Made by a program: the position numbers and the translations under genes. The notes under the pieces were generated by a model. The model saw only the letters and a list, made by a program, of their open reading frames with translations, ran no database searches and was not told where the DNA came from. A DNA stretch of 32,000 nucleotides from Promethearchaeota archaeon (GTDB taxonomy: Archaea > Asgardarchaeota > Lokiarchaeia > Sigyniarchaeales > Promethearchaeaceae): NCBI GenBank assembly GCA_016933055.1, contig JAFGBS010000004.1, forward strand, positions 390,001 to 422,000, given 5' to 3'. How positions within the stretch are numbered: the first letter of the stretch is position 1; each line of letters begins with the position of its first letter. Below, one piece after another: positions 6,376-25,283 of this stretch.

Positions 6376-7674
6376 TTAAATTGGGCATATTCCGAAGATC
6401 AAATCCTTATAAATCCCCATTCCGAAGCGCTCCCCCGTAAAATATGCACATGTTGAAGAACTAAAGAGGGATTCACCACTTCTTCCTACGATAGGTTGAT
6501 CTCCAAGAATTGCACATAATTCATTTTGAGTTAAAATCCCATCACTTCGATTTGAGTCTACCATATATTCCACATAGATTTGACGATTCCACGAATAATC
6601 AAGATCTAAAAGATATTGCTGCCATGTTTCAATTGTGTAGGTATTCGTAAAGACAACTTCATCTGAAGTGTTAAAAATATATTGGCTGGGTATATGTTGG
6701 GAGGCAAAGAAGTCAGTGGAATTTCCAAACATCATGGAATACCCATATGAAGAAACTGGACTTGCATAAATTATATTATACATTTCTTCCAGGGTTGCAG
6801 AAGTCTCTAACGCTAATTTTGTGATACTGGATAACGGCATCATGGGATCTGCAGGTTGGTTAATTGAGACTAAACTAGAAAATAAAGAGAACCCATTCTC
6901 ATTCTTTCCACAGATTAGTGACAAACAAGCACCTCCACGAAGTGAAAAAGTTTCTTGTTTTCCGGTCAAATTCGCGTGAACCCATACCATTGTTGGTTTA
7001 AACGCATCAGAAAAATCCCAATTCTGCCCAATGGTGACTGAACCATCTGTATTGTTGGATCCAATTACTGTACAACCCCTCGGTTCAAAAAAACCATAGG
7101 TTGCTTCCGTAAAAACATGTTGAGCTAATGCATCTGTATAGGAGATATGAAATCCGGTCTTTTGGGACGCACCATCCGCAAGTCCTCGTAATTCTTCTAA
7201 ATGGTCTTCGGGTATATACTGTTCATATGTTGCTGCAACTTTCTTGAATTTTGGATAACTAAATCCATAAAAAAATCCTGTTCCTACAAGATAAAGCTTC
7301 ATATAGTAGATTTTCCATGCAATTTCTTGTCCAACAAGATATCCCATATCATAGGGATTATCGGATTCGACATATAAATATGGCATGGTATTGTCCTCAC
7401 GCCATTCTGCATAACCAGTAATATCAAAACGTATATAGGATAAACGATTACTAGCCATCCATAACCCTTCACCTATTATCCCCGATAACAATACAATCAA
7501 CACAATGGCTCCAAATTTTTTCCATTTCGGATGTTTCGCATTGGGGAATTTAAAATTTTTACATAAACCACGAGTAATTTGTTTGCGTTTGCATACCAAT
7601 TCTCTAAATAAAACAATTCCAGTAGCGATGAATGCTACAAACACAATAAACACAATAACTGCAATCCATAACAT
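6376..7674 (-). CDS. membrane-anchored C45 family (Ntn-hydrolase, acyl-CoA:6-APA acyltransferase-like) peptidase
   Basis: Two N-terminal hydrophobic helices. PYDMGYLVG and EELRGLADGA segments. Nucleophile context RG-CT-VIG followed by GQNWDF. Confidence 0.85.
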   Translation of the reverse strand: MLWIAVIVFIVFVAFIATGIVLFRELVCKRKQITRGLCKNFKFPNAKHPKWKKFGAIVLIVLLSGIIGEGLWMASNRLSYIRFDITGYAEWREDNTMPYLYVESDNPYDMGYLVGQEIAWKIYYMKLYLVGTGFFYGFSYPKFKKVAATYEQYIPEDHLEELRGLADGASQKTGFHISYTDALAQHVFTEATYGFFEPRGCTVIGSNNTDGSVTIGQNWDFSDAFKPTMVWVHANLTGKQETFSLRGGACLSLICGKNENGFSLFSSLVSINQPADPMMPLSSITKLALETSATLEEMYNIIYASPVSSYGYSMMFGNSTDFFASQHIPSQYIFNTSDEVVFTNTYTIETWQQYLLDLDYSWNRQIYVEYMVDSNRSDGILTQNELCAILGDQPIVGRSGESLFSSSTCAYFTGERFGMGIYKDLIFGICPI

Positions 7675-7756
7675 AATACCAAATTCTCAATGTTATCTTA
7701 AAAACATACTCTAAAGAAATTCTATAGAATACCATAAATAAAAAAGAAAAAAGTGT

Positions 7757-8665
7757 TTAAAGTTGTTTTCGACGTGGAATAATAAATGCTGGTATATATA
7801 ACACTGCATGGATAAAACTCAAGAAGTGTTTGATAGAACGGATTAAAAATGTCCAATCTGAGGAGAACATGCTAAATACCAGTGCAACAATAAGTAGTAG
7901 CAAAATTGTTGTCGAAAGGATTAGTTGCAATAAAATATACCCAAGTATTTTTCGATATTCTTGTACCTTCGTCATCATTTTCACAATATACACAATATCC
8001 ACGATGATTAGAACTAGAATCACTACAACAAACACATATGAGGCTCCTATTACGTAAAAAGTGATATCAGAACTCCAATATTCCTCTACAAATACACCTA
8101 CAACCCCAAATAAAAAGGCCAGATACATTATTATCTCAAGGAATACCACAAATTGTTCATTACGTTTAATATTATCCATCAAAAAGACTTCAATGGTAAA
8201 TATGATGAACATAGAATAAGCTAATGCTTCAAATGGAATGTAAAATTGCCCTAATACATAGATTATTCCCCTCAAACTGGATTCTGAGACGGTATAAAAA
8301 CTTTCCAATAAACGAGTAATTCCTAGGAATACTGCGGTAAAGAATATCATATTTGCCATATATTTATCTGTTCGTTTTTTTCTGCCCTTGTTTAACCCTA
8401 TAACCACACCGAAATAGGTTAATCCGGCAATTGCAGAACTTATTGCACTAATTATCATCCATATGGCTCGAAAATCCATATCATAAATTTGATAATCAAG
8501 CCTCCAAAATGTAAAGGGACGTATGATTTCTAGTGAATTGTGCACAGTAATTACGTCGTTGTATACTAATATGTCTAATGCAACAACCGCAATAACTGCA
8601 ATTATCGTTATAGTCCACACAAATGTGAGTACTAACTTCAGTTTAATTTTAGCCATGTTGTGCAT
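7757..8665 (-). CDS. polytopic membrane protein (about 8 TM: one N-terminal helix plus a 7-helix block), function unknown
   Basis: 302-aa ORF with eight long hydrophobic segments. No recognisable family motif. Confidence 0.8.
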   Translation of the reverse strand: MHNMAKIKLKLVLTFVWTITIIAVIAVVALDILVYNDVITVHNSLEIIRPFTFWRLDYQIYDMDFRAIWMIISAISSAIAGLTYFGVVIGLNKGRKKRTDKYMANMIFFTAVFLGITRLLESFYTVSESSLRGIIYVLGQFYIPFEALAYSMFIIFTIEVFLMDNIKRNEQFVVFLEIIMYLAFLFGVVGVFVEEYWSSDITFYVIGASYVFVVVILVLIIVDIVYIVKMMTKVQEYRKILGYILLQLILSTTILLLLIVALVFSMFSSDWTFLIRSIKHFLSFIHAVLYIPAFIIPRRKQL

Positions 8666-11942: not shown

Positions 11943-12194
11943 ATGATGTCGCACCCCACTATTTCCATTGTTAACCGTAAGGGTATGGTTACTATCCCCT
12001 CCAATCTTCGAAAAAAGTATAATCTACAAGAGGGATCAGAAGTGGCCTTTCTAGATATCATGGGGAATTTAGTTCTTGTTCCAATTTTATCAATTGAGGA
12101 AATACGGAAGCAGATGCCGCCTGCAAAGGAGATGTTGAAATCCTACGAAGAATCCCGCAAACAGGAGATACAATTGGAAAATAAACGCCTGTGA
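11943..12194 (+). CDS. AbrB/MazE/SpoVT-family antitoxin (VapB-type)
   Basis: VNRKGMVTIPSNLRKKYNLQEGSEVAF swapped-hairpin motif. Its stop overlaps the next gene (GTGA). Confidence 0.9.
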   Translation: MMSHPTISIVNRKGMVTIPSNLRKKYNLQEGSEVAFLDIMGNLVLVPILSIEEIRKQMPPAKEMLKSYEESRKQEIQLENKRL

Positions 12195-12625
12195 AAGCCA
12201 TGAAAAAGAAGATTTGCATAGATACTGGGATAATGACCCAATATATTTCTTCAAGTCCTCCGGAACCGATTGTTAATATAATAAACCGAGTGATCAAGAG
12301 AGAAATTGAATGCTATATTCTTAAATCCGTGCTTATTGAGGTGTATTATCAAATATGTAAATGGAAAGGCATTGAATTTGCTCGTAATGCATTAACTTCT
12401 TTCCAAAAAACCGTACCTTTTGTCCCCGTAGAATTAGATGATGGGTTAATCCAAACTGCCGGGATACTAAAGTGTCAGCATCGAACTACATTATCCTATA
12501 TTGATTGTATGAGTATATCTTATTGTATAAATAACAAAATGGAATTTCACACTACCGAGAAAACCTTGAAAGGAATACAAGACGACACTTTGAACAAACT
12601 AAAAGTGAAAAAATATCGATTTTGA
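12191..12625 (+). CDS. PIN-domain (VapC-like) ribonuclease toxin
   Basis: ICIDTG (first Asp), VLIEVYYQI (Glu), LSYIDC (Asp), TTEK (Glu where T-x-D is usual). Translationally coupled to the AbrB gene; ATG at 12200 is an alternative start. Confidence 0.88.
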   Translation: MKAMKKKICIDTGIMTQYISSSPPEPIVNIINRVIKREIECYILKSVLIEVYYQICKWKGIEFARNALTSFQKTVPFVPVELDDGLIQTAGILKCQHRTTLSYIDCMSISYCINNKMEFHTTEKTLKGIQDDTLNKLKVKKYRF

Positions 12626-14420: not shown

Positions 14421-15710
14421 TTATAGATTTTCGCTACTGGCGGGTGGAGTTTTTTCACTCGGAGGTTGGGTTGTATGAATCTCATCAAATTTAAAGATAG
14501 GAGTCGATAAACCTAGGATTATGAAAGAAATTATGGAAAGTATTGGTGTCAAGATAAATTGGAACCAAATCCCCGTAAATTCTGCAAGTGCTCCCCAAAT
14601 AATTAAACCTAATGGCATAATTGATTTAATAAGGGTAAATAAACTGGAAAATATCCGACCTTGATATTCTCGCGGAATAACGATTTGTAAAATAGTGATC
14701 AATTGCGTGTCGATAAAAGTTATACACAATCCCAGAACAAACCCCACTACATAAATCGCCCAAAAATTCCAAGAAACCGTATTTGGAATTGCTGCGAGTG
14801 CTAAAAGCACGAATGAGTTTATAAATGCCCAGATAACCACCCCTTTCATTTTTGGCTGTTTTTTAATTAGCATCAAGATTAGTCCCCCGATAAAAAACCC
14901 TACTTGAACAGAAGCCATCAAAAAACCAAATTCTCGTTCAAGTCCACCGTGATAATTTTGTAATAATAAAGGTAAAAGGCTAAACAAGGGAACCACAAAG
15001 AAATTGGCTAATCCAAATAGGATAAAAGGTGGTATTAATTTTGTTTCATGCATATATCGGACAGAAATTTTGAAATCCTCAAGAAAATGAAGTTTTCCGG
15101 TGCCTTGTGTTGCTACCCTTGGAATTTTCACGATTAACAATACAATCAGAGTCGGTACACACGTAATTACATCAAACCAATAAATCTGGTTAATCGGCAT
15201 AATTTGTATGAGGAATGCTCCGGCTATTGGGGTAACAATTGAGAGAAGTGCCATAAAAACCCGATCGAAAGCATTTATTTTTTGAATAAACTTCTTGGGC
15301 ACCATTAAAGAGTTTAGACTAACTGCAACCGGCATCTGGAACCCTTGACATATTCCTCTAATTCCCATAAGAACTAAAATCTGCCAAATTTCGAAAATTC
15401 CGAAAAAGAAAAGCATTATCAGCACAAAAGTAGCAAATGCTTGAACCGCATCAGAAATGAAAAGAATTTTGTTCTTGGATCGCCGATCTGCAATCACCCC
15501 AGCAAAGGGGGATACAAGTATCATCGGCACCATATTCGATATGGTTGATAAAGATAGAATCAGAGAACTTCCTGTTTCGATTGTCAGAAACCATGTCACA
15601 CTAAAGGATACGAGTTGAGAACCAATTAAAGAAATGTACTGAGTAGCCCATAACCATAAAAATTGCTTAAAAGTCTTTCTTGGGATGGACACTTCATTTA
15701 AGTTTTCCAT
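14421..15710 (-). CDS. MFS transporter (DHA3/macrolide-efflux-like)
   Basis: WATQYISLIGSQL, motif A SPFAGVIADRRSKNKIL, VIPREYQGRIFS, 12 TM. The ORF track starts at TTG 15782; ATG 15710 (MENLNEV) is the more plausible start. Confidence 0.93.
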   Translation of the reverse strand: MENLNEVSIPRKTFKQFLWLWATQYISLIGSQLVSFSVTWFLTIETGSSLILSLSTISNMVPMILVSPFAGVIADRRSKNKILFISDAVQAFATFVLIMLFFFGIFEIWQILVLMGIRGICQGFQMPVAVSLNSLMVPKKFIQKINAFDRVFMALLSIVTPIAGAFLIQIMPINQIYWFDVITCVPTLIVLLIVKIPRVATQGTGKLHFLEDFKISVRYMHETKLIPPFILFGLANFFVVPLFSLLPLLLQNYHGGLEREFGFLMASVQVGFFIGGLILMLIKKQPKMKGVVIWAFINSFVLLALAAIPNTVSWNFWAIYVVGFVLGLCITFIDTQLITILQIVIPREYQGRIFSSLFTLIKSIMPLGLIIWGALAEFTGIWFQFILTPILSIISFIILGLSTPIFKFDEIHTTQPPSEKTPPASSENL

Positions 15711-15764
15711 ATGTATACCAAGAATTCCCGAATAAATATCCTTCGATATGTTATGCAGTGGAGA

Positions 15765-16070
15765 TGTTGCTAGCGAATGCAAAATCCAAAGTACAAAATG
15801 CTACCTTCTTTCAAGCTAAAGCAGAATTATTATCCTTCGATTCAGAGTACTTCGATTACCTTTATTGTTCTTTCGCGTTTCATCATTTTACCAATGATGC
15901 TTAGGTACTCCAGAAGATGTATCGGGTATTAATGCCACTCGGGGATTGCTAAAAAACATTACCACAAGTTCTGAATTTCTGGATGGCCGGTATATCAATC
16001 AATTCTTTCCCGAATCCAAAAAAATTGACATTGATAGATGTGGAAAGCTACTTAGATTTTATAATCATTA
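15765..16070 (+). pseudogene. class I SAM-dependent methyltransferase relic
   Basis: ATFFQAKAELLSFDSEYFDYLYCSFAFHHFTNDA*VLQKMYRVLMPLG, then a frameshift to LLKNITTSSEFLDGRYINQFFPESKKIDIDR. Matches the DAE.LPF.D..FD......FHH......L.EM.RVLKPGG pattern. TAG at 15902-15904; the SAM-binding N-terminus is missing. Confidence 0.75.
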
Positions 16071-16186
16071 GATCGGTTGGATTAGCCTTCACTCATGCGA
16101 ATTTTTTTTCCGAGTGTCTGTTTATACAGCCATTGTTTCACCATTCTTAAATAGATATATATGTATGCATAGTGGTTTGCGATAAT

Positions 16187-17803
16187 ATGGATGCATTCCG
16201 GTATTCTTTATATATATCTGTAGGATTCGGGCTGTTGGTCTTTATTTGCTGCTTATTAAGTTCAAAAAAAAGGGCTGATTACGAGGATTATAGAAGGGAA
16301 AAATGGAACAAATATGTTTCTTTTCAAGACCCCGAGCTAAGAAAATCCTTGGAACACGATATCATTGTATCAACAGATGAAGAATTTGAGGCATTTTTGG
16401 TTTCTTTGCGTTCTTCGGTCAAGTATAGACGGGATAAAAACGGTTTACGCATTAGAAAAAACATATGCATGTTTATCAACAATATCTGGATGAATTCGTA
16501 TTCGGAAAAAGGTAGAAAAATTTACAAACGATTGAAAAAACTAGAAGAAATTGTCCCATTACTCAAACGAGTTTATTTTGGGCCTAAATACACCCCCATT
16601 ATTTATCGAGAACGAAAATATGAGAAATCCTATCAAAGGCGGAAGTTTAATTTCCCGCTCCAACCGGATTCCACGGCTCCAAAACTCGATACAATAATTG
16701 ATGTAGCATATCACCTTCAAACCTCAATTCGCTTGATTCTTGCCATTATTTATACTCAATCGCATTCACGCGATCGTAATTATGTTAAAATCACTCAAAT
16801 CGACAAGGCTTTGCATCAAAAGGGGAACTCTTACCTTAGGGTGGTTGGTTCTCCTATAGCTAGACATGTGGATATTGATCAATCATTCATCTTAAAGGAC
16901 AAGAGGGGAAAGGTCCCTAAAAACGCAAAAACAACCGATCCACAAGATGCTTATTTAGAATATAAAGAACTGGATAGTAATTTTTATACACGGAAAACGT
17001 TAGTAAAACCTAATGGCAGAAAACGATTAATAGCCGTTCCCAATGAGAAATTGCGATCCTTCCAGCGAATTATCCTCAAGACTATTCTTGAAAAGGCAGC
17101 CCTTCCTGATGTGTGTACGGGTTTTACAAAGACTCGTTCTACCGTGACCAATGCAGAATTTCATGTGGGTGCGCAAACTCTAGTAAAAGTTGATTTGCAT
17201 AATTTTTTCAATAACTTGTCTCTTGACCATGTATTTGAGGTATTCCGAGGATTTGGATATAATCGTCCTGTTTCGGGGATTTTGGCAAATTTATGCACGG
17301 ATTATTACAGAAGTCGTCGGTATTTACCTCAAGGAGCATCTACAAGTCCCATGATTGCGAATCTGTACGCATTGCATTTAGATAGACGTCTAGAAGGACT
17401 TGCGAACAAGTATGATTTGATCTACTCTCGATATGCAGATGATCTCACCTTTTCTTCTAAGGATCCCAAGATTCGTGTAAGAACCTTTATCCAAGCGGTA
17501 TACAAAATCATAAAAAGTGAAAAATTATACCCGAATTATCAAAAAACCAAAGTATATCGCAAGCAGCATAAAAAATCTGTTACGGGTATCACAGTAAATG
17601 AGAAAGTGAACATTGATCGAAAGTGGGTAAACGCATTTCGGGGTGAACTCTATCGCTATTCAAAATTCGGTGTGCCGGAAGAAGATAGGTTTAGAATCGT
17701 GCATCAAATGCACGGAAAATTTGCCTTTCTGAAAATGGTTAATCCTGAAGTTGCAAAGAAATATGAGACACAAATATCCAAATTCATTGCTGAAAATTCA
17801 TGA
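16187..17803 (+). CDS. retron-type reverse transcriptase with N-terminal transmembrane helix and long basic N-terminal extension
   Basis: KPNGRKRLIAVP, region X NAEFH (17150-17164), VKVDLHNFF, LPQGASTSPMIAN, YSRYADDLTFS (YADD at 17432), region Y VTGITVN (17579). No maturase or HNH domain. The ORF opens at GTG 16172; ATG 16187 follows an ATATATAT box at 16155-16162. Confidence 0.93.
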   Translation: MDAFRYSLYISVGFGLLVFICCLLSSKKRADYEDYRREKWNKYVSFQDPELRKSLEHDIIVSTDEEFEAFLVSLRSSVKYRRDKNGLRIRKNICMFINNIWMNSYSEKGRKIYKRLKKLEEIVPLLKRVYFGPKYTPIIYRERKYEKSYQRRKFNFPLQPDSTAPKLDTIIDVAYHLQTSIRLILAIIYTQSHSRDRNYVKITQIDKALHQKGNSYLRVVGSPIARHVDIDQSFILKDKRGKVPKNAKTTDPQDAYLEYKELDSNFYTRKTLVKPNGRKRLIAVPNEKLRSFQRIILKTILEKAALPDVCTGFTKTRSTVTNAEFHVGAQTLVKVDLHNFFNNLSLDHVFEVFRGFGYNRPVSGILANLCTDYYRSRRYLPQGASTSPMIANLYALHLDRRLEGLANKYDLIYSRYADDLTFSSKDPKIRVRTFIQAVYKIIKSEKLYPNYQKTKVYRKQHKKSVTGITVNEKVNIDRKWVNAFRGELYRYSKFGVPEEDRFRIVHQMHGKFAFLKMVNPEVAKKYETQISKFIAENS

Positions 17804-17822
17804 AACAAAAAAGAAAAAAGAA
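17804..17822 (-). terminator. double oligo-U terminator for the minus-strand ncRNA
   Basis: The minus strand reads TTCTTTTTTCTTTTTTGTT (two T6 runs) directly after the 3' inverted repeat. The plus strand after the RT stop is A-rich, so this tract can only act as an oligo-U terminator on a minus-strand transcript. Confidence 0.55.
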
Positions 17823-17957
17823 GTCCCTGCCAACAGATTTATGTTTTACCCTTGGTAAAATTCAACGAAAGACGCTTATTTCGTTGAATATTGTTGATAA
17901 TGTACATGTTCGTAGTCCACCACGATGGTTCATCGCAGCTCATTAGACGCCAGGGAC
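17823..17957 (-). ncRNA. candidate retron msr-msd ncRNA, convergent with the RT gene
   Basis: Minus strand: GTCCCTG-G-C...G-G-CAGGGAC, a 7-bp terminal inverted repeat closed by a G.G mismatch (putative branching G at 17950). The 5' half has small hairpins (UGCGAUG-AAC-CAUCGUG, whose G.U pairs form only on this strand). The 3' half has two perfect hairpins (17860-17889 with 11 bp; 17844-17860 with 7 bp). A U-tract follows immediately. Confidence 0.62.
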
Positions 17958-18513
17958 ATAATATTCATACTTTCTATACTTTTATGCATAATTATTATTC
18001 TATTATTAAATAATCCTCAAAAGAAGCGATTCTCTTCTTTCAATATCTTAAGCTTTAGGACTCCTGCGTCTTATAGGTTTTAACCAGTGAAATATGGATT
18101 TTAGTTTAACTGGAACATCCGACATCGAACCGCAACCTTAGAGGTCTTTATAATCAATTGCGCGATTTTGCAAATCGTCTTTCTTTAACGAAAATATCCC
18201 AAATAATTTGCGTGCACCAATTGTGTTCCCAGCAATATTCCTGTCTTCATAAATATTCAGAAAGTGATTTTTAAGCAGTTAAGGCATAAAATGAGAATAT
18301 CACAATACCAGGGAGAAACTGAATAAACTATGCCCAGAAATTTGCCATAGCTATTCCCAGATTTCCTGAATATATACCATTCGATATAAGGTTTATAAAT
18401 TATCTGGTTACCCGCAATCTATTCGACTATTTACCTATGCACAATATTTCAACCACGGAAGAAAAAGAAAATAGAGAGAATTGGGATGGACAGGTATACT
18501 TTCTTCCTCTCGA

Positions 18514-22425: not shown

Positions 22426-24525
22426 CTAATGGTTCATTTTCAACTTCCTATATGCAATGTAGATACCTAAACCGATTATACATACAATAATTGGAATATT
22501 ATACCCAGGGACCCTATTCGGGGATGCAGGAGTTTTTATCTCGAAAAAGTCGCTGTAAGCATAGATTAACGGGTCTAACATGTTGATTATTTTAATTCGA
22601 TATTGAGTAGAATCACTCAAGCCCGATGGTACAAACCAGTAAAACTCGCCGTCATTCAAGGTGCTTGAAACAATTTCCATCACAAAAGCCTCTCCTATAT
22701 ATAATTCGAGTTTCACATTAGAAATATTTCCTGTAGAAGTCCAATTAATATAATGAGAGCTTTCAAGGTTCCATGAACTGGATGAGGATGGATTAAGTAT
22801 GTTCAAGGTCTTCGAAATTACCACATTAACTTCTATACATGGCGATAGTGTATTGCCATTGTTATTTGAGGCTTTCACTATGAAATAATACGCACTATCA
22901 GAGTATCCATTCAATGGCAAAGATAAATCGGTAGTATCTTCTAAAAGAAGAGTGAGACTCCCGTTTATTTCTGAAATATGCCCGGAATGTTGATATACTG
23001 TATAAGTATTTACCCATGTGGAACTCGTCCATGAAAGGGTAAAAGATCCGTCTGTATCAGGAGAATCGGCATTGCTTGTTAGATCGAAAGGGCCGGGTAC
23101 GGGTAGAGGACCACCATCCGTAATTATCCAGCTATATGTATCAATAATGTGCTGACGGGAAGTCTCTGCAACATTGCTATAAAAAGAATTTCCTCCATCG
23201 AATTCTACTCCGGAAATCAAAGTTAACTGAGACCACCCTATCAATAAGTTATCATAATTATTAGGAGAAAGAAATGCGCTCTTGAACATATAGTTCATAG
23301 ACGTGACGCTGGATACATCCCAATTCCCGATGGGTTGATTGAAGGATGATGCTGCATAGAACATCGCGGATGTACTTATTACACTAGACACATCCCAATT
23401 CCCAATGGGTTGATTGAAGGACGATGCACTAAAGAACATCCCATACATAGTCACGACGCTGGATACATTCCAATTCCCGATGGGTTGATTGAAGGATGAT
23501 GCAGCATAGAACATATAGTTCATAGACGTGACGCTGGATACATTCCAATTCCCGATGGGTTGATTGAAGGATGATGCACCATAGAACAAATAGCTCATAC
23601 TCATCACACTGGATACATCCCAATTCCCAATGGGTCGATTAAAGGAAGATGCACCTTCAAACATACGCAGCATACTCGTTACACTGGATACATTCCAATC
23701 TCCAATGGGTTGGTTGAAGGACGATGCATATTGAAACATATAGTTCATAGTTGTTACACTGGATACGTTCCAATTCCCGATGGGTTGGTTGAAAGACGAT
23801 GCATCATCGAACACCCCATACATATCCGTTACGCTGCATACATCCCAATTTCCGATGGGTTGATTGAAAGATGATGCACCACTAAACATCGATTGCATAC
23901 TTATTATACTGGACACATCCCATCCATTCATATCCCCACTACTACCGAGATCATAACAGTTTCTAAATGCCCACGATAAGCTAGTTGTACCAGTCAAATC
24001 TAGATTGTCACTTGCCGTTAAAACTAAATTGGAACAGCCGTAAAAATAACTACCTGAATTTCCTAATCGTAAACTGCCCCATTGTTGAATTTCAATGAGT
24101 TTTAATCGATCTCCTCCGTTAGCGAACCGCCAACCGATTATCATACCCGTAATATTTACAGTATATACTCCCGAGGATAAATAGGTGTGGGTTACTTCGG
24201 TTTGGTTCCATGATATGATTATATCGCTATCCCCATCGCCCCATTCTACCAAAAAATTGTAAATGCCACTCGATTGCAGAGGTAAGTGCACTTGGTTGCT
24301 GCTACTGGAACCCGTGCTGGTCTTGGTGGTATCCCACACCGATATAAAGTCATTCGGACCTCCGGTATCTGGTAAGGTAAAATCTACATGGTCTGAGTTT
24401 GGTTGATACGACGGCCTCCTTAGAATGGAGAATGCCGACACAGAGAGAATCAACGCTATACACCACACTATTCCAACAAGCATCCCAATTTTTTTATTTT
24501 CTTTGCCTTTTTTCATTTTTAACAT
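22426..24525 (-). CDS. BspA-type/DUF285 leucine-rich-repeat surface protein with PKD-like and Ig/FnIII-like domains and Loki-CTERM-like anchor
   Basis: N-terminal hydrophobic helix, VEWGDG...HTY (PKD-like), 25-aa W(D/N)[17 protein letters not shown] repeats, C-terminal VPGY + TM + RKLK. Confidence 0.92.
23275..23922 (-). repeat. 75-bp coding tandem repeat (8 full copies plus 1 partial) in the BspA gene
   Basis: Recurrent CCAATTCCC(G/A)ATGGGTTG(A/G)TTGAAGGA on the plus strand at 75-nt period. Confidence 0.95.
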
Positions 24526-24872: not shown

Positions 24873-25283
24873 TTATAAAGAATCACAACTAAAATCATTC
24901 TTATTTTCCGTTTCACCGCTTTCTTTGCAATAATCGCAAATGATTTCGATCAACCAATCAAAAACTGTGGGACCAAGACCATTTTGTGCCTTCTCTAAAT
25001 CCTCTTTAATGTGGGCAATATTATTGGGATCACATGTTTCCAAACGCTCAGATAATTGTCGGACAGTCTCCTCATAACCAAGTCGCTGTTGTGAGACCGC
25101 TATATTTTTCCAAATAATATGATACCCTTGCGCTGGTAGAATATCTGAATGGAATAGTTCGTCAAATGCATCCAAATTGCGTCCCCACCATGATGGAAGG
25201 GAGAATACTGTAGAAATATGGTCATAGAATTCTTCTAATGTACTAAATTTGCTACCATCGATGATGAAAATCGGGATACCCAT
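24873..25283 (-). CDS. barstar-family ribonuclease inhibitor (orphan immunity protein)
   Basis: FIIDGSKFSTLEEFYDHIS...WWGRNLDAFDELF barstar signature, and LGYEETVRQL...GPTVFDWLIEII. Confidence 0.9.
   Translation of the reverse strand: MGIPIFIIDGSKFSTLEEFYDHISTVFSLPSWWGRNLDAFDELFHSDILPAQGYHIIWKNIAVSQQRLGYEETVRQLSERLETCDPNNIAHIKEDLEKAQNGLGPTVFDWLIEIICDYCKESGETENKNDFSCDSL

Follow-up and report, generated by a model that had tools for sequence, protein, structure and literature searches.

Introduction

To our knowledge, retrons have been studied almost only in bacteria. Among the described types, the type XIII retrons correspond to reverse transcriptase (RT) clade 10 and include Mx162, Mx65, Ne144, and Sa163 (Mestre et al. 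2020, PMC7736814). The same authors note that this type correlates moderately with host 16S and that domestication is possible for some retrons. Surveys report a few retron-type RTs in archaea, where they make up 4% of the archaeal RTs (PMC8632793). Here we describe a retron-type RT and an adjacent structured RNA from a Promethearchaeota archaeon, encoded in a stretch of 32,000 nucleotides (contig JAFGBS010000004.1, positions 390,001 to 422,000; assembly GCA_016933055.1) that we refer to as the window.

The module is probably a Promethearchaeota retron-type RT with its template RNA—a divergent sister of the type XIII (Mx162-like) retrons whose parts have been rearranged. Since it breaks the one-transcript rule and lacks a known effector, we class it as a retron variant nearest type XIII, rather than as a canonical retron or as belonging to type XIII itself. 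The module resembles a bacterial antiviral system in what seems to be a new archaeal form; in the literature we found no description of a retron RNA from archaea, of any retron from the Asgard lineage, or of a retron with a separate template RNA gene on the opposite strand.

An intact retron-clade reverse transcriptase

The RT gene occupies positions 16187 to 17803 of the plus strand, with an ATG start at 16187 and an in-frame GTG at 16172. Its reading frame is intact and forms a single open reading frame (ORF; 16172/16187 to 17803, plus strand) of 543 amino acids counted from the GTG. The fingers, palm, and thumb lie at 16976 to 17797 (plus strand), where PADLOC and PDB matches extend over residues 269 to 540, and Pfam RVT_1 matches residues 279 to 475 (2.6e-26). 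Reading the sequence directly, we find the retron motifs where the original prediction had placed them: NAEFH of region X at 17150 to 17164, YADD at 17432 to 17443, and VTG of region Y at 17579 to 17587, all on the plus strand. In a 20-member alignment of the Asgard RT family NAxxH, YADD, and VTG are invariant throughout; the invariant columns are N327, A328, H331, Y421 to D424, T471, and G472.

Profile, sequence, and structure searches agree on where this enzyme belongs. The best PADLOC model is RT_XIII (1.2e-84, 283 bits)—the type that holds Mx162—followed by III-A, II-A, and 22 more retron RT models (1e-75 to 1e-39) over residues of about 260 to 540; the NCBIfam model retron_St85_RT scores 198 bits, under its cut-off of 235. 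Models of non-retron enzymes are far weaker, at 2e-16 for group II intron RT and 4e-10 for Drt2. With phmmer against the PDB, Ec86 RT is the best match (5e-39) and the best 14 matches are all solved retron RTs. An AlphaFold2 (AF2) model of the RT, with a mean predicted local distance difference test score (pLDDT) of 79 and a predicted template modelling score of 0.74, was used as a Foldseek query; the top match was again Ec86 RT (1e-18, 32% identity), and the first 18 chains were all retron RTs (Ec86, Eco2/Ec67, Eco7, Ec78, Ec83, and Eco8). Group II intron RTs and the RTs of diversity-generating retroelements, DRT9, DRT2, and AbiK ranked only below these 18 chains. The RT is an intact retron-clade enzyme, and the earlier assignment to retrons over group II intron RTs, those of diversity-generating retroelements, and defence-associated RTs (DRTs) is borne out, as is the resemblance to Mx162-like enzymes.

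A search of 5.8 billion clustered proteins returned about 21 full-length relatives at 35–51% identity; every named one among them bears the label Promethearchaeota or Lokiarchaeota. Bacterial retron RTs rank after these Asgard relatives and match the RT half only. One relative is encoded in the chromosome of Promethearchaeum syntrophicum MK-D1 (locus L003); the source genome shares a GTDB family with this organism, in keeping with the Asgard origin that had been proposed from the sequence. A single relative (P0002, locus L087) has an extra C-terminal tail at residues 530 to 586 with two CxxC pairs, zinc-ribbon-like in appearance, which is missing from the window's RT.

The 22 Asgard RTs in a 121-sequence tree group together as a single clade (SH-aLRT 100), set on a long stem (0.83); among its neighbours are bacterial RTs typed by PADLOC as XIII, RT_other, or RT_outgroup. 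The Asgard RTs score 283–315 bits against RT_XIII, compared with 464–527 bits for two bacterial RTs typed XIII. Such distance from characterised retrons—both the stem and the lower scores—would suit an alternative in which the RT and the RNA cooperate by a non-retron mechanism, the RNA serving as scaffold or template for another route to cDNA (for example protein-primed, 3'-end-primed, or repetitive synthesis of the DRT2/DRT9 kind) that yields no 2'-5' branched multicopy single-stranded DNA (msDNA). The same alternative gains from the RNA having a gene to itself on the other strand, as the non-coding RNAs (ncRNAs) of some unknown-group (UG)/DRT systems do. We regard it as improbable: next to retron models and structures, those of DRT2, DRT9, and AbiK fall short by many orders of magnitude, NAxxH and VTG, both specific to retrons, are invariant, and the RNA shows the full retron layout, including an invariant G at the inner end of its terminal stem.

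A structured RNA with the retron layout

The original prediction placed a structured element of 135 nt, convergent to the RT and with retron-ncRNA geometry, 20 nt past the RT stop. This msr-msd-like ncRNA gene lies at 17823 to 17957 on the minus strand and is read from 17957 to 17823. The element folds better than its shuffles on either strand (z = -3.7, with 0 of 200 shuffles as good), and comparison with related loci supports the geometry that had been suggested and shows the element to be syntenic in homologous Asgard loci.

Read 5' to 3' along the minus strand, the RNA begins with the a1 arm (GUCCCUG, 17951 to 17957), which pairs with a2 at 17823 to 17829. This terminal stem (UCCCUG/CAGGGA) is invariant in close relatives and covaries in distant copies, where it appears as CCUUG/CAAGG, GCCCUG/CAGGGC, or GCUUUG/CAAAGC. 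Directly 3' of a1 stands an unpaired G (17950, minus strand) that faces an invariant G at 17830. A G after a1 is present in all 23 copies: the 15 aligned (G12, with G132 opposite), the distant copies, and the copies of loci L008 and L114. In retron Ec86 the branching G is also found directly after a1; G 17950 is the candidate for a branching, or priming, role here.

The conserved, msr-like part follows at 17908 to 17949 (minus strand) and consists of a mini hairpin (17940 to 17947), a 9-bp hairpin (17919 to 17939), and the single-stranded GGACUACGAAC (17908 to 17918). All nine pairs of the 9-bp hairpin are kept in 15 of 15 sequences (alignment A2), and its G.U pairs would be C.A on the plus strand. 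The variable, msd-like part at 17830 to 17907 (minus strand) forms two hairpins, at plus-strand coordinates 17860 to 17889 and 17844 to 17860; hairpins of this kind occur in every copy, one to several in each, with differing sequences. Retron ncRNAs have ends that pair, 1–3 msr hairpins, and a stable msd stem-loop; the Asgard RNA agrees with this layout in its covarying terminal stem, its two hairpins of the msr kind, and the one or more hairpins of its msd-like part. The msd-like part is the putative template. The predicted DNA product would be the plus-strand sequence starting at 17830.

A covariance model (R1) built from 15 copies finds the window element at 106.6 bits (E 4e-24) as the sole copy in its genome. 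Overall, R1 detects 21 copies in 16 loci (E 1e-38 to 3e-4), each on the strand opposite to its RT, and two further copies with long or GC-rich msd parts (L008 and L114), missed by the model, were found by motif search and by eye. Of the 19 distinct loci with related RTs that were examined, 18 have the element beside the RT, and its sub-types track the RT sub-clades. A metagenome scan added one useful locus, whose element is identical to that of L006. When R1 was run on 74 more distant loci, nearly all of them bacterial retron loci, there was no significant match.

The functional strand can be told from the pairing itself. Over three helices, the minus strand gives 295 of 295 canonical pairs and the plus strand 254 of 295; because wobble pairs that are canonical on the minus strand become C.A when read on the plus strand (41 pair cells), we take the minus strand as the functional one. 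In a wider alignment 96% of cells are paired and 12 of 22 pairs show compensatory changes on both sides, with slid-partner controls at 42–46% paired; the observed covariation score was reached by 0 of 500 shuffles. Rfam holds no family that reaches its gathering score on the element, and elsewhere in 15800 to 18500 gives only chance-level matches (E above 1); a tRNA scan of the window found none. Two small ORFs inside the element (34 and 48 amino acids) were considered and rejected as coding, since the copies differ by compensatory changes and by indels.

Copies and arrangements

Five loci carry tandem pairs of RNA genes behind one RT: L003 of MK-D1 (7559 to 7704 and 7814 to 7957), L002 (7659 to 7787 and 7889 to 8017), L007 (1109 to 1255 and 1452 to 1597), L091 (2582 to 2727 and 2837 to 2980), and L095 (7336 to 7491 and 7564 to 7719). 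The paralogues are 86–95% identical in the msr part and 45–67% in the msd part. Each tandem copy has its own TATA-like box, and the second copy lies 230–340 nt further from the RT. The window has no detectable second copy in 17958 to 18513, the place where relatives have one; this interval between the RNA and the RnfC-like gene, of about 550 nt, also holds no convincing ORF.

Other arrangements depart further from the one in the window. At L094 the RNA is 1.3 kb from the RT, with two small ORFs between (7492 to 8109 and 8288 to 8545, minus strand, the same strand as the RNA); these encode 205 and 85 amino acids, have no Pfam or PADLOC match, and might be lineage-specific partners. The L008 copy has a long msd part. 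Beside the most distant RT (P0124, from a GC-rich organism; L113/L114), the RNA is located upstream of the RT and divergent from it (L114, 2724 to 2892). At L112 (1501 to 1649; genome G304, contig C220) there is an orphan fragment whose match to the Promethearchaeum-type RNA is confined to the msd half. It has no msr part, a degenerate 3' arm, and no neighbouring RT, and might be either the remnant of a decayed copy or a product of retro-insertion.

These arrangements bear on another idea: that the element, instead of being a template, acts chiefly as a cis-antisense regulator or terminates transcription in both directions at the RT 3' end. Its place 20 nt after the RT stop and its folding on both strands are what one would expect of such an element, and with no strong plus-strand terminator ahead of it the RT mRNA may run into it. 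We nonetheless judge this idea very improbable indeed: selection on the pairing is strand-specific and spans three separate helices, the second tandem copies sit 230–340 nt further out with a TATA box each, and the element is 1.3 kb away in L094 and upstream and divergent in L114. A regulator or terminator would also leave the pattern of msr and msd conservation without a reason.

Transcription signals

A TATA-like box (ATAAAAG, 17979 to 17985, minus strand) lies about 25 nt upstream of the first stem base and is weak in the window. The Promethearchaeum group has a conserved AAAAATTTAAATT that ends about 26 nt ahead of the stem on the minus strand, and L095 carries similar boxes. Directly past a2 there is an oligo-U tract (17804 to 17822, minus strand), which we take for a terminator-like signal of the archaeal kind; almost every copy has a T-rich run after a2 (T10 in L094, for example). 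Read as a putative B recognition element (BRE)/TATA promoter and an oligo-T terminator, these signals suggest that the RNA may be transcribed independently. Scans for sigma-70 promoters and intrinsic terminators stayed at chance level, with models that are ill-suited to an archaeon.

A predicted membrane anchor in the N-terminal half

The N-terminal half of the RT begins with a predicted transmembrane (TM) helix at 16208 to 16264 (plus strand, residues 13 to 31). The Kyte-Doolittle 19-residue mean is 2.24 in the window's helix and 2.0–3.6 in all 18 full-length members, and AF2 models a helix over residues 3 to 49, with pLDDT of 86–90 at residues 11 to 30. The acidic tail before the helix and the basic flank after it predict an N-terminus on the outside and an RT domain in the cytoplasm. 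Going by hydropathy and model, this anchor is a specific feature of the family, and each of the 18 full-length members is predicted to have it. Most members keep a cysteine close to the end of the TM helix that faces the cytoplasm (consensus F-x7-C, often CxC or CC; alignment A1).

Next comes a family-specific helical domain (16331 to 16606, plus strand; residues of about 54 to 145, AF2 pLDDT 70–93), for which Foldseek gave no significant fold match in the PDB, in AFDB clusters, or VIA-wide. For the N-terminal module as a whole, the ESM Atlas features search, Pfam, and PADLOC returned no fold or family; the one weak PADLOC match is to HEC-01B (3.6e-4), in a single family member. Residues 1 to 268 are conserved inside the Asgard RT family, and when a profile of the N-terminal half was compared with 1.84 billion representative proteins only 11 reached E <= 1e-10—the full-length ones are members of the RT family, and the short ones resemble fragments of it.

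Ahead of the catalytic domain, a helix-turn-helix-like pre-RT segment (APKLDTIID...AIIY; 16676 to 16753, plus strand) has nearly invariant P170, D177, A179, N187, and L190. This is the pre-RT helix from which the resemblance to Mx162-like RTs had first been drawn; hhalign aligns residues 134 to 209 with the type XIII pre-RT region, weakly (probability 55%, E 1e-4). The segment is joined to the RT domain by a poorly conserved linker (residues 199 to 268; 16766 to 16975, plus strand), which is variable and disordered, with AF2 pLDDT below 50.

Genomic neighbourhood and distribution

The flanking genes are those named in the original prediction: a major facilitator superfamily (MFS) gene (Pfam MFS_3, 5e-32), the remains of a methyltransferase, and RnfC-like and RnfD-like genes. 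The methyltransferase fragment (15680 to 15904, just upstream of the RT) has 74 amino acids that cover only the middle of the SAM methyltransferase domain (Methyltransf_11, 3e-6) and hints at a past rearrangement at the site. An empty-site comparison through the RnfC-like neighbour found no orthologue in four related genomes. Elsewhere the window encodes a PIN-domain protein (12191 to 12625), a Barstar-like protein (24873 to 25283), and a 699-aa DUF285-repeat protein (22426 to 24525), none of which is linked to the RT at other loci.

Every ORF lying up to 5 kb from the RT at 18 loci was included in a clustering of neighbours. Different RT sub-clades have no neighbour family in common; within syntenic sub-clades neighbours do recur, in that the Promethearchaeum group shares a pair of ABC transporter genes and another group shares a cupin and PmbA/TldD. 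PADLOC has no match within about 10 kb on either side of the window's RT. Over this range no separate effector gene is seen, in line with the original proposal; one encoded elsewhere in the genome may exist. A winged-helix/SWIM or HEAT/ARM partner is likewise absent within about 10 kb of the window's RT and does not recur at related loci, the rest of the genome not having been searched for these families.

The RNA is found in 8 of the 14 genomes of the window's GTDB family, representing 4 of 7 genera, and is absent from two complete genomes. A phylum-wide protein search placed the RT family in 4 of 301 genomes; with the N-terminal profile, in a search of limited sensitivity, there was no match in a sample of 295 genomes from the phylum's other families. 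Absence counts are soft because the phylum-wide search missed some genus-level relatives of MK-D1.

What surrounds the module may also be explained by a true retron RT and msDNA module that has been domesticated for a cellular, non-defence role at the membrane, or that uses an effector elsewhere in the genome. Synteny within sub-clades, housekeeping neighbours, and the lack of PADLOC genes nearby fit this explanation, as do the moderate correlation of type XIII with host 16S and the possible domestication of some retrons (PMC7736814). We think it somewhat unlikely, given the patchy presence of the module (8 of 14 family genomes, with two complete genomes without the RNA), the diversification of tandem copies in the msd part, and the different contexts in which the window and a relative of the same genus carry it. 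Taken together, patchiness, msd diversification, and differing contexts fit an accessory, conflict-driven element.

Proposed mechanism

As a probable retron variant, the module may work as follows. The RNA would be transcribed alone from the BRE/TATA promoter about 25 nt upstream, end at the oligo-U tract after a2, and fold with a1 paired to a2. The cytoplasmic RT domain, held at the membrane, would bind the conserved msr hairpins, prime from the 2'-OH of the invariant G (17950), and copy the variable msd hairpins into a short single-stranded DNA (ssDNA) with the plus-strand sequence from 17830 onwards. By analogy with bacterial retrons, the function is probably virus sensing or abortive infection, and we infer both msDNA synthesis and a defence role. 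The weakest step is the output, which might pass through the membrane-anchored N-terminal module—this module could act as the effector—or through a partner encoded elsewhere. The fullest version of the idea is a complete two-part immune system, in which moving the template RNA into a gene of its own lets one membrane-anchored RT serve an array of RNA genes, the msd parts diversify as separate sensors or decoys, and the N-terminal module delivers the response; we hold this to be unlikely.

Several observations count against reading the module as a retron with a defensive role. The canonical single transcript of msr, msd, and RT is absent, and the RT at L009 has no RNA by model, motif search, or arm-pair scan, with 671 nt upstream covered. 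The window's TATA-like box is weaker than those of the Promethearchaeum group. A contig from an RNA library (X4), from a relative about 92% identical, begins within the second RNA gene of the MK-D1 locus and extends into downstream genes, and gives neither the strand nor the ends of the RNA. The neighbours are housekeeping-like (MFS, Rnf-like, ABC transporter, PmbA/TldD) and form no defence island, and synteny within sub-clades suits a domesticated function as well as it does defence. Finally, one transmembrane helix is a thin basis for an effector.

Implications

Defence-finder rules that demand a known effector would probably miss the Asgard RT family. Were the module to make msDNA, it would show that template and RT need not be co-transcribed, and a membrane-anchored RT would join the known forms of retron. 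Should the two-part immune system prove true, it would represent a retron lacking any separate effector, and the first functional one from archaea, found in the lineage closest to eukaryotes. A template that is encoded separately and multiplexed by nature could interest users of retrons in genome editing. The prediction is directly testable, since Promethearchaeum syntrophicum MK-D1, which is in culture, has a member of the family.

Comparison with known systems

The canonical retron cassette has its ncRNA upstream of the RT, on the same strand, and in one transcript, whereas the Asgard RNA is on the strand opposite the RT at every locus; the unusual layout that the original prediction had proposed for an archaeal retron variant lies in this template-like RNA on the other strand. 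The order of parts within the RNA is the msr-msd layout described by Mestre et al. (PMC7736814).

Type XIII is the nearest of the known types. The Asgard family resembles it in its best RT model, a long N-terminal extension, a weakly alignable pre-RT helix, NAxxH, and VTG, and also in the make-up of the ncRNA, with inverted repeats at its ends, hairpins in the msr, and stem-loops in the msd. There are also differences: the Asgard RTs form a clade of their own with lower RT_XIII scores, and the N-terminal TM helix is particular to them. Type XIII systems have a winged-helix/SWIM partner (cluster 114), usually together with a HEAT/ARM protein, and no such gene is seen near the Asgard RTs. In the bacterial type XIII relatives examined, a non-coding block that is conserved lies upstream of the RT and shares its strand; in contrast, the Asgard RNA is encoded on the opposite strand with its own predicted promoter.

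Retron Ec86 (type II-A; PDB 7v9u and 7v9x) is the closest solved system to the Asgard RT in both structure and sequence. It differs in being an operon of msr, msd, and RT with a separate effector similar to nucleoside deoxyribosyltransferases, and its RT has about 320 amino acids and no membrane anchor. The UG/DRT RTs (DRT2 and DRT9) share with the Asgard module a two-part design, in which an RT and a structured ncRNA lie side by side; however, their Foldseek matches are at 1e-7 to 1e-8, compared with 1e-18 for retron RTs, and their ncRNA architecture is different.

For the output of the system, two analogies may be drawn. Retron Ec48 (type IV) has a membrane-spanning effector, although this is a separate protein with two TM helices. 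Types I-C (Ec67/Eco2), XI, and XII have an effector fused onto the RT itself, and with it RT and RNA make up the whole system, as they may do here; the known fused effectors are C-terminal enzymatic domains (Toprim, protease, and TIR), whereas the Asgard RT carries a single TM helix and a helical domain at its N-terminus.

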